Shown piece after piece: positions 3 to 62,073 of a DNA stretch of 64,000 nucleotides (position 1 is its first letter; each line of letters starts with the position of its first letter). Both the position numbers and the translations under genes were made by a program. The DNA is from a virus, in IMG/VR virus record IMGVR_UViG_3300007352_000398, one strand, 5' to 3'. Below the pieces are notes generated by a model, which made no database searches, was not told the DNA's origin, and worked only from the letters and a program-made list of their open reading frames with translations.

Positions 3-2192
3 GTCTATGACTCTGAGCGCGACCGCATCCTAGAACGAATAAAAGCCGAAGCTCCCAATCACCCCTATCTTCAACAAGTCGGAGCTACTGTTCCCGACAA
101 TGGACCCTGGGCCAAATTTAAGCACACCCAGGTGATGGGGTCGCTTTTCAAAGTTAATACAGATGTTGACTTTGAAAAGTGGTGCGACGGCAAGGGAACA
201 GATTTCATTGTCGCTGAGAAAGCAGACGGTTGCACCATTGTCGCTTACTATCAAAACGGATTTTTAACGAATCTTGCCACGCGCGGAGACGGTCACCTTG
301 GTGAAGACATCACAGCAAATGCAAAATATTTTCGAAATGTGAAACTTCAACTCCCTCACAACTTTACTGGAATTTTACGGGGCGAAGCAATCATCTATTT
401 AACAGATTTTCAAAAGCACTTCGCCCCCTTAGGGATGGCAAACCCCAGAAACGCCGCCAGTGGAAAAGTAAGGGACACTCAAAATCCAGAACTCAAACAT
501 CACGTAACTGTAAAATGGTTTGATGTTTTATCCGACACCGAATCTTTTAAGACATGGCACGATAAATTTGTTTTTCTTCAAAATGACCTTCAACTGCAAA
601 CATTAACCTTCTATCCGGCTCTTGACGGCACCCAAGTTTGGAAGTTGTTTAAGACATACTGTGTATCTAAACGTGCCTCCCTTAATTATTGGATAGACGG
701 CCTTGTTGTCAGAGTAAACAATCTTCAAAAACACGATTCATTTGGCGTTACTGATAAAAGGCCAAAGGGTGCAATTGCAATTAAATTCCCAGCAACTAGT
801 GTTATCACCAGACTGGTAGACTACGAGATTAATCGTGGGTTAGGAGGCCGTCTTACGCCTGTTGGAATTATAGATCCAGTTCAAATTGATGGAACAACTG
901 TATCTCGCGTTTCAATGCACGGCCCAGATTGGATAAAGACGATGGGCCTAGCAATTGGTGATGAAGTAGAAGTCGCTAAAGCTGGTGATATCATCCCCCA
1001 AATAGTTTCCAAACTTAAAGATTCTCCCAACAGGAAACTGATTATTTTTCCAACGACGTGCCCACTTTGCAACACGAAATTAGTTAAAAATGGAGCTTAC
1101 ATCGAATGTCAAAATAAATCGTGTGAAGGTGAAATATACGGCTCCCTTGCTAAGTGGCTATCTAAGCTTGAAATAAATGGTATTGGCGACTCTATCCTTC
1201 AGGATTTAATAAAAGACGTTCGCGATGTGGCTGCACTTTATGAGGCTCCTGTCGAAGCGTTTACCAAAGCTGCAAAAGGCAGCTCAAAAATTGGTAAAAA
1301 GATATGGAAAGAATTGCATTCTAAAAAAGAAATACCGCTTGCTGTCTTTTTAAGTGCGTTGCACATTTCCGCCCTGGGCTCAACAAATGGTCAACGATTA
1401 GCCTCAAAATTTAAAACGCTGGATGCGGTCTTAACGGCATCCGAAGACGCTATTCGCCAGATTTCTGGAATTGCTGAGAACGCAGCAAAGATACACTCAG
1501 GATTGCGTCAAAAGAAATCGCTTATTTTACGCCTTCAAAAACTTTTAGACATTCAAAATATTCAAACAGGTATCCTTTCAGGAAAGAGTTTTTGTATCAC
1601 TGGGCAACTCTCTAAACCACGCGCCGAGATCGAAACCTGGATTAAATCACTAGGCGGGATAGTTAAGGGCATTGATAAAGATTTAACATACTTAGTAACT
1701 GATTCCCCAAATAGCGGTAGTAGTAAAAATCAGAAAGCCGATAAGTATGGCATTAAAAAAATAACTGAGCAAGAATTATATGCGATTGTACCCCAAGTAA
1801 CTACACAAAATGTATCACTCCAGCAAACAGAACAACTTTTAGTAAATGTTGGTCACACCTTATCTTTATTTGATGCCATCATGTCTAGACAAACTGGTAC
1901 CATTACTGTTGCTGTATTAAAAAATAAATATCAAGTTTTAGATGCATCTTTTTTAGACTCAGGGGATCCTCAGATCAAAAAAACTCGGCTGGGATTTTCT
2001 AACTGGGATGACGCAGTAGACGATCTTGACGCAGGATCTAGTCCTCAATCTAAAAAATTAAATATTTCGTCTCAATTGAAATGGAATTCCGTTATTCTTA
2101 ATGACACCCATTTTATAGCTCCATCGTTACAAACCCTAACTGATGCTCTTTCTCACGTTACCTTTACAGCGTGGTCAGAAGGTGACATTTAA
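3..2192 (+). CDS. ligA: NAD-dependent DNA ligase (5'-truncated by window edge), with ~130-aa extension after BRCT
   Basis: Frame is open from position 3 ([27 protein letters not shown]...KHTQVMGSL). It contains adenylation motif [19 protein letters not shown]4 zinc finger (CPLC...C...C), HhH repeats and BRCT ([10 protein letters not shown]...[14 protein letters not shown]). Confidence 0.95.
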
Positions 2193-2647
2193 CGTCGCAG
2201 CAATAATACAATGGCCGTAACCGCTAAGACCGTTAACCAATTTATCGGCAAACCATGACTCCTACTAGAGGGCTGCTGCACAACAATCATTCGTGGCTCG
2301 GTTGGATATCTTATTGGTGGCGGGGGTATATACGCATAAGGATCATAATATGACGGTGTGTTATACCAAATATTTATTGGTAAATGTTTTTTATGTTTGC
2401 TATAGCTGGTATGATACCCAGAATCAAAACCGTTAGAACTGTAATCCACAGGTGCAGGAGCACCTGTTGAAATAGAACTTGGTAACACTGGTAATGGTTC
2501 TGCAGGAGGCGGTGGGGGTGGGGGTGGGGGTTCCGGGGCAGGCTCTGATGGCAGTGCAGTAGGCTCAGCCGGTGAAGGCTCTTCTCCAAAACTCCAGTAT
2601 CCAGCTAAGCCCTGATAACTACCTTTAACCCGCGAGCGAAGATACAT
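2189..2647 (-). CDS. Pro/Tyr-rich tail-anchored putative virion membrane protein
   Basis: Poly-Pro linker, C-terminal hydrophobic helix followed by RR. The N-terminus ([21 protein letters not shown]) is homologous to that of 28635..29108. Confidence 0.7.
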
Positions 2648-2877
2648 TATCTACGACTCCACAACAATCCTGTAATTAATAGAGAAATAGCCAGTGTTGG
2701 CCAATGAATGCTTCGTAATGAAGATGAATCTTTTCCGTTAGAATCTTTGTTCACAACTATAATTCTGGGCTCATCATAGGATGGGATGTCGTAGTAGTCA
2801 TAATACGGATACCCGTAACCATAATATGGCACAGGGTAAAAACCTCCCCCGTGATGTCTTCTATGTCCTTTGTGCAT
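2647..2877 (-). CDS. Small His/Tyr-rich tail-anchored protein
   Basis: EPRIIVV plus C-terminal TM (IHWPTLAISLLITGLLWSRR), paralogous to the C-terminus of 2189..2647. TAAAAT lies 6 nt upstream of ATG. Confidence 0.65.
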   Translation of the reverse strand: MHKGHRRHHGGGFYPVPYYGYGYPYYDYYDIPSYDEPRIIVVNKDSNGKDSSSLRSIHWPTLAISLLITGLLWSRR

Positions 2878-2934
2878 ATAGATATTTTACCCGAAGATTG
2901 CTTTTTTTTATAGAGAAGATGTTATAATTCTTAC

Positions 2935-59580: not shown

Positions 59581-59878
59581 ACAAATTGGCTTATTACTTG
59601 CACTTATAGGGTCAATTTGGTCATTAAAAAAATGTCCAAAATGCCAAGAACATAGCATCACTTTAGCGAAAACTGGAGTTGCAGGCTATGCATCGCTTTT
59701 AAGTGCGGACATTACAAATAAAAATCAACAATTAGAAGCATATATTAATAATGGTATTAAGATAAGTAGTGTGATGCATATCTCACTACTAACTTATATG
59801 TTATGCCATAAGTACATATGTATACCGTGTGTTGTTACAGCTCTAGGTTCTTTTATAGCATTTGCAGCTATTCAATAG
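59567..59878 (+). CDS. Small membrane protein
   Basis: Hydrophobic N- and C-terminal segments with CxxC. Confidence 0.45.
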
Positions 59879-61721
59879 TTGGCTCGACAGGCGGGGGTTC
59901 CCCACTTTGCTCAGCATTTTGTCCTGCCTTACTATACAACTCCTGAGCAATTTGATGTTGTAAAGTCATCACAGATGCTAATGCAGTCTCAATTGTCGAA
60001 AGATCATTTGAATTTTTAGCTTCTCGTAGTTTCTCAAGTTGCTGCTTGACCTCTTCATCGCGCCCAACTAGCTGTTCAGGATGCTCTTTAATCTGTCGCT
60101 CTAAGGCATCTATCAATTGATCGGCGCGGTTCTTAGCCTCAATTAGAGCTACACGTTTATTATCTTCTTCAGCATATCGCTCAGCCTCTTGCTTCATCTT
60201 TTCAATTTCATCTTTGGTAAAACCAGTATTTGCCTGAATAGTTATGTTCTTAACTTTTCCTGTTCCAAGATCCTTAGCAGCAACGTTTAATATACCGTTG
60301 GGGTCAATATCAAAAGAAACTTCTATTTTGGGCACGCCACGGCTAGCAGGTGGGATTCCATCCAATCTAAAATCACCAAGCCACCTATTATCAGCCGCTA
60401 TCCGTCTTTCTCCTTGGAAAACTTTAACATCAACAGCGGTTTGATTATTTTCAAACGTAGTAAATACCTCTTTTTTGCCTGTTGGAATTGTAGTGTTTCG
60501 TGGAATCATAACTGTCATCACCCCACCGGCCGTTTCGACCCCCAATGAAAGTGGCGTCACATCTAACAGCAGAATGTCCGTTTTTTCTCCTGCTAAAACA
60601 GCTCCTTGAACTGCTGCGCCTGCGGCCACGACTTCATCAGGGTTAACTGACTTATTAAGCTCTTTGCCGTTAAAAAGTTCTTTCAACATTTCCTGTACAA
60701 GCGGAATACGTGTTGATCCACCAACTAAAACAACTTCATCAATTTGATTAGTCTCCAGTTTTGCATCACGTAAAGCTTGCACAACAGGAGATTTTGTACG
60801 CTCAATAAGGTGTTTTACCAGAGCTTCAAACTTTGCGCGAGTTAACTCAATATCCAAGTGTAGTGGATTGTTGTCTTTTTGACAAATAAATGGAAGTGTA
60901 ACCCTAGTAGCCTTCGAAGATGAAAGTTCGCACTTTGCCTTTTCAGCTGCTTCTTTCAAGCGTTGAAGTGCAAGCTTGTCCTTGCGTAAATCAACAGAAT
61001 TTACATTCTTAAATTCTTCAGCGATGAAATTTATCAAAACCTGGTCAAAATCGTCCCCTCCCAAATGAGTGTCGCCGTTTGTTGATTTAACTTCGATAAC
61101 ACCATCACCCACTTCCAATACAGACACGTCAAACGTGCCACCTCCAAGGTCGTAAACAAGTATCTTCTGCTCTAGATTCTTATCTAGACCATATGCTAAT
61201 GCTGCTGCTGTTGGCTCATTAATGATTCTTCTGACTTTGAGTCCAGCAATTTCACCAGCATCTTTAGTCGCCTGCCGCTGAGCATCATTAAAATAGGCGG
61301 GAACCGTAATCACAGCATCAGTCACAGTCTCTCCGAGATACTCTTCAGCGTAACTCTTTAAATAAGAAAGTATCATCGCTGAAATTTGTGGAGGACTAAA
61401 TTCTGTTCCTCGAATGTTAACCTTTACGGGATCATCACCTTGGCCAGTGACTTTATAAGGGACAATTTGTTCCTCAGCCGCAACTTCATTCTTTCTACGG
61501 CCCATAAACCGCTTGATTGAGTAAACAGTGTTTTCAGGATTAGTAATTGCTTGATTTTTAGCGCGCTGACCTACAACACGCTCACCATCGTTTAAAAATC
61601 CCACTACCGATGGTGTAATCCGCGCGCCCGAAGGATTCGCAATAATTTTAACTTCAGACCCCTCCATTACAGCGACTACAGAGTTGGTCGTCCCTAGATC
61701 GATTCCAATGATTTTGCTCAT
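59868..61721 (-). CDS. dnaK: Hsp70/DnaK chaperone, canonical
   Basis: [54 protein letters not shown] and NPDEVVA. Confidence 0.97.
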
Positions 61722-61779
61722 TACACTACCTTTATGGTAAGTGTAGCGTTTTTATCCAAAGAGACAAGAGTTAAACTAT

Positions 61780-62073
61780 TTACATGCTTCTAAGCATCAA
61801 TAAAACAATTAGGGCAGCAATTGCACCTAATATTATTGGTTTTTGCATTTCTTTTGCAGTCACCGGGGCAGGAACTGGTTTCGCTGGAGTCTCCATTTGC
61901 TGAGCAGCCTTTTCAACTGCAACATCGACTGTATTAAGTAACTGTTCTTGTGAGTTTCCTAATCCTCGTCCGCGGTAACGCATAAGAGCCATCCTTTGTA
62001 ATTCTTTCGGAAGAAATTGAATTGCTTCCAAACTGTCCTTAGATTGATCTTTTTGATGTTCGTAACCAGCCAT
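61780..62073 (-). CDS. Tail-anchored protein (start revised to ATG 62073)
   Basis: AAGGAG SD; RGRGLGN; C-terminal TM. Confidence 0.7.
   Translation of the reverse strand: MAGYEHQKDQSKDSLEAIQFLPKELQRMALMRYRGRGLGNSQEQLLNTVDVAVEKAAQQMETPAKPVPAPVTAKEMQKPIILGAIAALIVLLMLRSM

Follow-up and report, generated by a model that had tools for sequence, protein, structure and literature searches.

A Short Hydrophobic-Glycine Tag Shared by Tail-Anchored and Jelly-Roll Proteins of a Bacterial Virus Is Probably a Common Signal for Particle Assembly

Among the products of a 64,000-nt window (the whole stretch of DNA analyzed here) from the virus record IMGVR_UViG_3300007352_000398, that of an uncultured bacterial virus of very large size and apparently without a tail, whose genome is itself at least 115 kb long, otherwise unrelated proteins carry a common tag, a short linear motif made of a hydrophobic residue, a glycine, and most often Gln or Glu. 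The motif is enriched close to N-termini, confined to one set of proteins (membrane proteins with a tail anchor, together with two jelly-roll proteins of a putative particle module), conserved in relatives, carried at the level of the protein, and set in disordered segments. Judged from sequence and predicted structure, it is probably a shared, selected assembly signal, a particle-assembly tag common to these proteins. An earlier reading of the same DNA, made from the sequence alone (hereafter the sequence-only reading), had noticed the motif on some 20 proteins that it called structural, and had proposed a proteolytic maturation code for the virion proteins of a bacterial virus; our findings bear out a shared and selected signal on this protein set.

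Results

The window holds 84 plausible genes. When residues 2-25 of their products are compared with the rest, FG ranks first of all 400 dipeptides and GQ second, in a test that does not depend on how the motif is defined; residues 2-25 hold 16 copies of FG and the remaining 18,078 positions hold 39, a 3.6-fold enrichment with a Fisher p of 6.6e-5 (about 0.03 with Bonferroni correction). The strict form of the motif, [FLMY]G[QED] with its first residue among residues 1-25, is present in 13 proteins, a count that exceeds every one of 1000 composition-keeping shuffles (3.5 ± 1.75, maximum 10). From 56 instances the consensus reads [S/G/N]-x-[F>L>M,Y]-G-[Q>E>K>D]: the residue preceding Gly is Phe in 30, Leu in 16, Met in 5, and Tyr in 5, and never Gly or Ala; the residue that follows is constant inside a family and differs among families (Q, E, D, K, S, W, or V). 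Wobble positions vary at the motif (TTT or TTC, five Leu codons, all four Gly codons), and the signal therefore resides in the protein, a DNA-level element being ruled out. Paralogy of the carriers is likewise ruled out, with no mutual BLAST match at E<1e-3.

Every motif instance listed by the sequence-only reading is present in the gene to which it was assigned. Three of them, YGLGD (34643), RGLGN (61780), and WAFGQ (44877), lie in mid-protein, neither near the N-terminus nor next to an anchor, contrary to what had been proposed; the likely start of the protein at 61780 is Met16, which is preceded by a Shine-Dalgarno site. The shared motif is real, but the figure of about 20 proteins resolves into a strict set of 13 (two methyltransferases included), a looser N-terminal [FLMY]-Gly set of about 16, and four juxtamembrane cases. 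As had also been noted, the motif is not prominent at the N-termini of enzymes, of which only the two methyltransferases have it, in a way that looks like chance. The description of the preceding leaders as often basic or aromatic is accurate: basicity is higher in tagged leaders than at other N-termini (p = 0.006), and Tyr falls within residues 2-5 in 9 of 16 leaders versus 10 of the 68 other proteins. In all, 27 window proteins have a C-terminal hydrophobic helix with basic residues after it and are here called tail-anchored; none of the tagged ones, as judged from the N-termini listed, has an N-terminal signal-like hydrophobic segment. The individual sites are collected in table 1.

That the carriers are structural proteins is a supposition, a jelly-roll fold being predicted in two carriers only. 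In AlphaFold models the first of these, a protein of 240 residues, is disordered over residues 1-82 (residues 1-30 with a predicted local distance difference test score, pLDDT, below 50) and forms a confident jelly roll over residues 83-240; among solved structures the capsid protein of Sulfolobus polyhedral virus 1 (SPV1; E=2e-4) matches it best, followed by those of SH1 and HHIV-2. The second, of 179 residues, has a long helix over residues 20-52 between its disordered leader and its jelly roll, and matches generic jelly rolls, SPV1 and HHIV-2 among them. The tagged N-termini of both score below 50 in pLDDT. These models would suit a virus that has no tail, a shell of single-jelly-roll proteins, and a membrane inside it, but they are no proof of one.

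In both jelly-roll families the tag takes elaborate forms. That of the 240-residue family opens a long form, [FL]G[ED]LP[ED]DLR, in which L19, P20, D22, L23, and R24 are invariant over 26 homologues; because residues beyond the Gly are invariant, they suggest a binding surface rather than only a scissile bond. A looser version, [FL]-G/A-[ED]-L-P-x-D-[LI] (FGELPxDL), is common to this family and to the unrelated 34643 family, whose window copy has Ala in place of Gly. In the 179-residue family the leader, 3-40 residues long, contains 1-7 copies of the tag in 34 of 38 homologues, and is made of 29% G, 13% Q, 12% N, 12% P, 11% F, and 8% Tyr, with 1.8% charged residues. A longer paralogue class of the same protein (P0107-P0112, 255-286 residues), one member of which sits on the 859-kb contig mentioned below, lacks the FG leader and has a lengthened coiled coil at its N-terminus.

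Conservation was assessed with 65 metagenomic homologues of the 240-residue protein and 52 of the 179-residue protein, and by comparing nine syntenic loci of relatives. These relatives are 40-90% identical and lie on contigs of up to 859 kb, and the tag is kept down to 40% identity. An N-terminal tag is found in 22 of 34 orthologues of tagged families versus 5 of 93 of untagged families; among the relatives' open reading frames (ORFs) that have no window homologue, mostly enzymes, it is found in 0 of 54, where about two would be expected. The sequence-only reading had named a lack of enrichment over matched controls and a lack of conservation in orthologues among the grounds for dismissing the motif; enrichment and conservation are both found, and neither ground applies. 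Homologues of the jelly-roll proteins occur on very large contigs (P0018/P0071, 859 kb; P0069, 600 kb; P0117, 313 kb; P0099, 133 kb), the gene order around them is conserved (e.g. loci L001 and L009), and one homologue is labelled in NCBI as derived from a Bathyarchaeota bin. The genomes of this lineage may be several hundred kb long, or these may be elements integrated in cellular genomes.

The second class of sites proposed by the sequence-only reading, just before the anchor, is a more delicate matter. Within the window by itself, 3 of 27 tail-anchored proteins have the motif in the 35 residues that precede the C-terminal helix, which is not significant (p=0.135). Orthologues, however, have it there in 22 of 57 cases against 5.1 ± 2.1 expected (maximum 13 in 2000 shuffles), counts that come from about eight families (47495, 46471, 50353, 42781, 51238, and the membrane-anchored spermidine synthase among them) and are not independent. 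Two spermidine synthase orthologues have LGE or LGQ within the pre-anchor linker. In the 50353 family, among 22 members at no more than 50% identity, the tag stands at both ends in seven, at the N-terminus only in six, before the anchor only in five, and at neither end in four, and 27 of its 33 copies fall in the two flexible ends, with six in 4,152 core residues. Within this family the position of the tag is interchangeable between the protein ends. Since removal of a leader and severing of an anchor are different outcomes, a tag that may stand at either end looks like an address label.

Could the motif have no function at all, and reflect chance, composition, or shared ancestry of N-termini? 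It is short and degenerate and was defined after the data had been inspected, and some carriers share more than the tag (FGKG with poly-Pro in 2935, 40976, and the spermidine synthase; MY-basic leaders in 2189 and 28635). Yet FG heads an unbiased dipeptide ranking, no shuffle reaches the observed count, the carriers lack mutual BLAST similarity, and the motif is retained at 30-60% identity while the adjoining residues change. We therefore give this explanation hardly any credence, contradicted as it is by the ranking, the shuffles, and the conservation of both N-terminal and pre-anchor tags in orthologues.

Table 1. Tag Sites in the Window, with the Window's Protease and Examples of Promoter Boxes (residues are numbered in the encoded protein)
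Feature	Position	Strand	Carrier and remarks
SFGE, residues 19-22	2582..2593	(-)	Tail-anchored protein 2189-2647; leader begins MYLRSRVKG
AFGK, residues 14-17	2974..2985	(+)	Protein 2935-3585; FGKG + poly-Pro module
RFGP, residues 12-15	3618..3629	(+)	Arg-rich 72-residue protein 3585-3803
GLGQ, residues 16-19	6811..6822	(+)	Tail-anchored protein 6766-7212
GFGA, residues 19-22	29043..29054	(-)	Tail-anchored protein 28635-29108; leader begins MYIRAKLRG
LFAE, residues 4-7	34652..34663	(+)	Tail-anchored protein 34643-35050; degenerate long-form copy, orthologue FGELPSD
YFGQ, residues 5-8	38183..38194	(+)	Tail-anchored protein 38171-38659; orthologue RLGQ
PFGS, residues 5-8	38708..38719	(+)	Tail-anchored protein 38696-39928; orthologue PFGSIFGQ
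RLGE, residues 12-15	39961..39972	(+)	Membrane protein 39928-40308; RLGEF in 4/4 genomes
GFGW, residues 11-14	40340..40351	(+)	Tail-anchored protein 40310-40660; relatives GFGW, GLGV, LGEFGEFG
NLGQ, residues 3-6	40659..40670	(+)	Tail-anchored protein 40653-40979; [FL]GQ in 5/5 genomes
AFGK, residues 11-14	41006..41017	(+)	Tail-anchored protein 40976-41224; FGxFGKG + poly-Pro in 4/5 genomes
GFGK, residues 290-293	42118..42129	(+)	Membrane-anchored spermidine synthase 41251-42432; between enzyme domain and Pro-rich linker + anchor
TLGQ, residues 4-7	44886..44897	(+)	Tail-anchored protein 44877-45287; [FL]G in 5/6 genomes
GFGQ, residues 57-60	46600..46611	(-)	Tail-anchored protein 46471-46779; anchor 26 residues on; kept in 4 orthologues
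GLGS, residues 184-187	47573..47584	(-)	Tail-anchored protein 47495-48133; adjoining anchor; [FL]G[ED] there in 4/6 relatives
SFGQ, residues 11-14 (N-terminal copy)	51160..51171	(-)	Tail-anchored protein 50353-51201
SFGE, residues 238-241 (pre-anchor copy)	50479..50490	(-)	Tail-anchored protein 50353-51201
IYGQ, residues 7-10	51529..51540	(-)	Tail-anchored protein 51238-51558
RLGQ, residues 35-38	51445..51456	(-)	Tail-anchored protein 51238-51558; I-R-L-G invariant in 5/5 orthologues (alignment)
GFGDFGE, residues 12-18	52622..52642	(-)	240-residue jelly-roll protein 51953-52675; opens long form [FL]G[ED]LP[ED]DLR
TFGQ, residues 7-10 from ATG at 54583 (11-14 of longer ORF)	54554..54565	(-)	179-residue coiled-coil + jelly-roll protein 54044-54583
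HtrA/Trypsin_2-type serine protease, membrane-anchored	26018..26812	(-)	Only protease seen in window
Extended -10 box (examples)	Upstream of 2935, 34643, 38171, 44877, 12008-14914, 14949-15473, and 47495-48133	(-) for the last three

A module (G/A)-F-G-K-(G/A) followed by poly-Pro is common to proteins 2935-3585 and 40976-41224, at their N-termini, and to 41251-42432, in the synthase linker. The adjacent Arg-rich proteins 2935-3585 and 3585-3803 share, in addition, a C-terminal peptide, R-P-G-[FY]-L-S-G-I-[FS]-S-x-W, a second shared short motif.

Read as a pure proteolytic maturation code, the tag would be cut after Gly by a viral protease (P2 Phe or Leu, P1 Gly, P1' mostly Gln, Glu, or Asp); N-terminal propeptides would be removed, and pre-anchor cuts would release proteins from the membrane. 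The viral enzymes adenain, poxvirus I7, and African swine fever virus (ASFV) pS273R, and also ATG4, do cleave after Gly, the sites are found toward either end of the proteins, as they are in the precursors of adenovirus, and the window encodes a membrane-anchored serine protease with an intact catalytic triad. The likeness to adenain, I7, and pS273R drawn by the sequence-only reading does not extend to the consensus, which here has a hydrophobic P2 before the P1 Gly, with Gly or Ala at P2 in none of the 56 instances. Moreover, Pfam scans of about 50 window proteins gave no CE-clan, papain-like, transglutaminase-like, C39, or any other cysteine protease and no prohead protease, and PHROGs likewise assigned no prohead protease among the window proteins scanned. 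No gene in the relatives' loci matches a peptidase family, and no conserved protease is seen in the window or in about 140 kb of those loci. The serine protease of the window (26018-26812) is HtrA-like, with an N-terminal membrane helix, no PDZ domain, and an intact His-Asp-Ser triad when aligned to DegQ; its gene is divergent from an Hsp70 gene (26828-28630, plus strand). Among 5.8 billion proteins it has a single homologue, 94% identical, and none in the relatives that keep the tag. Being lineage-specific while relatives retain the tag, it is therefore unlikely to be the reader. A BLAST comparison of all 57 proteins of the cultured phage SSIP-1 with the window gave nothing significant; for gp34 the best match had E=0.012, in helical or coiled-coil-looking regions of 32473-33198 and 38696-39928. 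Finally, tandem copies, the exchange between N-terminal and pre-anchor positions, and the prime-side extension FGELPxDL are all unnecessary for a scissile bond. As the sole explanation, a cleavage code thus seems to us rather unlikely, while deserving to be taken seriously.

A role in biogenesis must also be considered, in which the basic, aromatic leader with Phe/Leu-Gly at its end would be the handle of a chaperone, for example either of the two Hsp70s that the virus encodes, that keeps tail-anchored proteins competent for insertion or routes them to the membrane. The window's 27 tail-anchored proteins, which have no signal peptides, its two Hsp70 genes, an Hsp70 gene adjoining the module in one relative as well, and basic leaders with a hydrophobic residue, broadly like the peptides that DnaK binds, are all compatible with such a handle. 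The two soluble jelly-roll proteins are tagged too, however, the strict form is missing from 19 of the 27 tail-anchored proteins, the tag also stands next to the anchor and not just at the far end, and neither an invariant Gly nor a polar residue after it is a feature of Hsp70 sites; we regard a biogenesis signal as improbable. Other sorting signals were examined and rejected. A sortase- or exosortase-type signal would share the helix and basic tail, but the motif lies 3-34 residues upstream and no hydrophobic signal-like segment is seen in the carrier N-termini listed; no sortase family was matched among the roughly 50 window proteins scanned. The leader of type IV prepilins (class III) is basic and ends in Gly, as here, but what follows in the tagged proteins is polar, acidic, or Pro-rich sequence and not, as in prepilins, an immediately adjoining hydrophobic helix of about 20 residues. 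A lipobox is ruled out by the context of the motif.

Beyond the tagged proteins, the products identified in the window are an NAD-dependent DNA ligase, the two Hsp70s, a collagen-repeat protein, a clamp-loader-like ATPase, spermidine synthase with S-adenosylmethionine decarboxylase, sugar-modifying enzymes, and HNH endonucleases; three tRNAs are also present. In more than 20 genes an extended -10 box (TGTTATAAT or close) ends 5-7 bases upstream of the ATG, and several other genes have a Shine-Dalgarno site, which is strong in a few whose products are highly basic or look abundant. These boxes and sites point to bacterial expression signals, which would imply a sigma-70-type polymerase, and many of the transcripts are probably leaderless. 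Neither an 8-kb window segment (megablast) nor the two jelly-roll proteins (tblastn) found a match among 50,697 phage records; a scan of the 240-residue protein against IMG/VR gave no relative, and PHROGs gave no assignment for the module proteins.

Two further proteins of the module stand out. In the 332-residue protein 48148-49146 (minus strand), a basic C-terminal peptide, G-R-L-I/V-P-I-V/I-K-R-T-K-R-I/V-K-K-V, is near-invariant in five of the six relatives compared, and the remainder has diverged to 26-33% identity among orthologues. Within the membrane-protein cluster, a soluble protein of 215 residues (45482-46129, minus strand) is 38-57% identical in five relatives and has no Pfam, PHROG, or ESM Atlas match; it is a candidate for the reader of the tag or for an assembly factor.

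Discussion

Our preferred explanation, held tentatively and at slightly less than an even chance, is that the tag is a common docking or cohesion signal for particle assembly, with trimming optional. The signal would be the short linear motif [S/G/N]-x-[F/L/M/Y]-G-[Q/E/D], placed in the disordered segments (N-terminal leaders and linkers before the C-terminal anchor) of proteins that appear to build the particle, and in its N-terminal position it would usually close a basic leader of 3-25 residues, often starting Met-(x)-Tyr. A single common partner would read it at the cytoplasmic face of the membrane, so bringing tail-anchored and jelly-roll proteins together where capsid and membrane meet in the assembling particle, and the leader might afterwards be trimmed at the Gly (dock, then cut). 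Three things are our inference from the data above: the carriers belong to the virion, there is a single reader, and the tag serves for docking. The swap of ends, the tandem copies, and the long form FGELPxDL are no less expected of a docking tag than of a scissile bond. A complex prediction of the 179- and 240-residue proteins with the cytoplasmic part of 51238-51558 returned no answer (score 0.00), which speaks neither for nor against binding.

Several observations nonetheless weigh against docking and count in favor of a cut. A hydrophobic residue, an invariant Gly, and then a polar and tolerant position, ending a basic leader that is dispensable and variable in length and sequence, is also the grammar of a protease site. 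In the 179-residue family the last copy has Gln after it in 31 of 34 sequences, and the composition changes abruptly at this FG-Gln, which looks like a processing boundary; distant homologues of the same protein are without the leader, and the tag is therefore not needed by the mature fold, just as would hold for a propeptide. In addition, the protease search covered 64 kb, out of a genome that measures at least 115 kb. Docking and cleavage are not mutually exclusive; the capsid targeting sequence (CTS) of phage T4 and the tail of vaccinia A17 dock first and are cut later.

A variant of cohesion without any cut, which we think possible but quite unlikely, is that of a Phe-Gly "velcro": the FG repeats of the jelly-roll protein, uncharged and rich in N, Q, G, and P, and the single FG tags on about 15 membrane proteins would stick together in a layer without order, by which the internal membrane would be held to the protein shell and the viral membrane proteins directed into the particle. 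A bacterial virus would then employ a nucleoporin-like FG meshwork.

One conserved tag on about 16 unrelated proteins offers a direct handle on how tailless membrane-containing bacterial viruses select the membrane proteins of their particles, and on how they tie the shell to the lipid vesicle. Full-text literature searches brought up no paper that describes this lineage or any shared tag. In a 2019 review of membrane-containing phages the terms "protease," "cleav," "proteoly," and "precursor" do not occur (PMC6356626); in HCIV-1, an archaeal virus, loss of the initial Met is the only processing reported (PMC4958249), and none is reported for virion proteins of phages Jorvik and NO16 (PMC10589892, PMC13552765). 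The NO16 paper considers that contacts between capsid and membrane are perhaps required only during assembly. Should the tag be cut, it would be, as far as that review and those papers go, the first maturation code in such a bacterial virus, parallel to those of adenovirus, poxvirus, and ASFV; should it dock, it would be an address label for the particle, usable for loading foreign proteins. The lineage is itself unusual, with relatives on contigs of 133-859 kb.

Comparison with Known Systems

Common tags on virion proteins are known in kind, and what appears to be new here is the setting, a putative membrane-containing bacterial virus with relatives on very large contigs. The T4 CTS on internal proteins is removed by the prohead protease gp21 at Leu/Ile-x-Glu, and in phiKZ-like giant phages many head proteins are processed at Ser/Ala/Gly-x-Glu. 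As in these phages, a short N-terminal leader is found on several unrelated particle proteins (13-16 in our case, presuming that the carriers belong to the particle), with a motif of the hydrophobic-x-acidic type, and the logic of the T4 CTS, docking into the assembling particle followed by trimming, would be the same, cleavage being here only putative. T4 and phiKZ-like phages, on the other hand, are tailed, have no membrane, and cut after Glu rather than Gly, whereas the present tag is hydrophobic-Gly-(Q/E/D/K/S...), also occurs before anchors and in tandem, and comes with no prohead protease or other known maturation protease among the window proteins scanned, the lineage-specific HtrA-like enzyme being the only protease there.

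Adenain cleaves at (M/L/I)-x-G-G|x and (M/L/I)-x-G-x|G, poxvirus I7 at A-G|x, and ASFV pS273R at G-G|x. Here too, a Gly-based site lies near the ends of many probable virion proteins, and the viruses concerned belong to the jelly-roll capsid lineage and have or acquire membranes, as we infer for this one. They differ in that the tag has Phe or Leu directly before a single Gly, that no clan CE enzyme is found among the roughly 50 window proteins scanned, and that the host is bacterial, to judge from the extended -10 promoters and Shine-Dalgarno sites. Vaccinia offers a closer parallel to docking: the N-terminal tail of A17 serves to dock D13, a jelly-roll scaffold, and is later cleaved by I7, and in the same manner the flexible end of a membrane protein would here tie a jelly-roll lattice to the membrane during assembly. 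A17 and D13 are, however, one pair of proteins in a eukaryotic virus, and here about 16 families are tagged.

Outside viruses, the cargo-loading peptides of encapsulins and the encapsulation peptides of bacterial microcompartments dock cargo to a protein shell and stay uncut. They resemble the tag in being short conserved peptides on the disordered end, either end, of unrelated proteins, and differ in being nonviral and in working without a membrane. The leaders of the 179-residue family, which bear hardly any charge, abound in N, Q, G, and P, and repeat Phe-Gly, recall in composition the cohesive FG domains of GLFG nucleoporins; yet these leaders have 3-40 residues and 1-7 repeats and belong to a bacterial virus, and the other carriers have only one or two copies. 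There is a resemblance, too, to the small jelly-roll membrane viruses (SPV1, SH1, HHIV-2, SSIP-1), which also combine small jelly-roll proteins with many small membrane proteins. SSIP-1 likewise has many tail-anchored proteins, without significant sequence similarity to the window, and by eye, without statistics, [LM]-Gly can be seen in the first 30-40 residues of its ORF36, gp37, gp44, ORF52, gp53, and ORF55 (JN880423). The genomes of this group measure 16-44 kb, in contrast to the contigs of 133-859 kb that carry the relatives of the virus described here.

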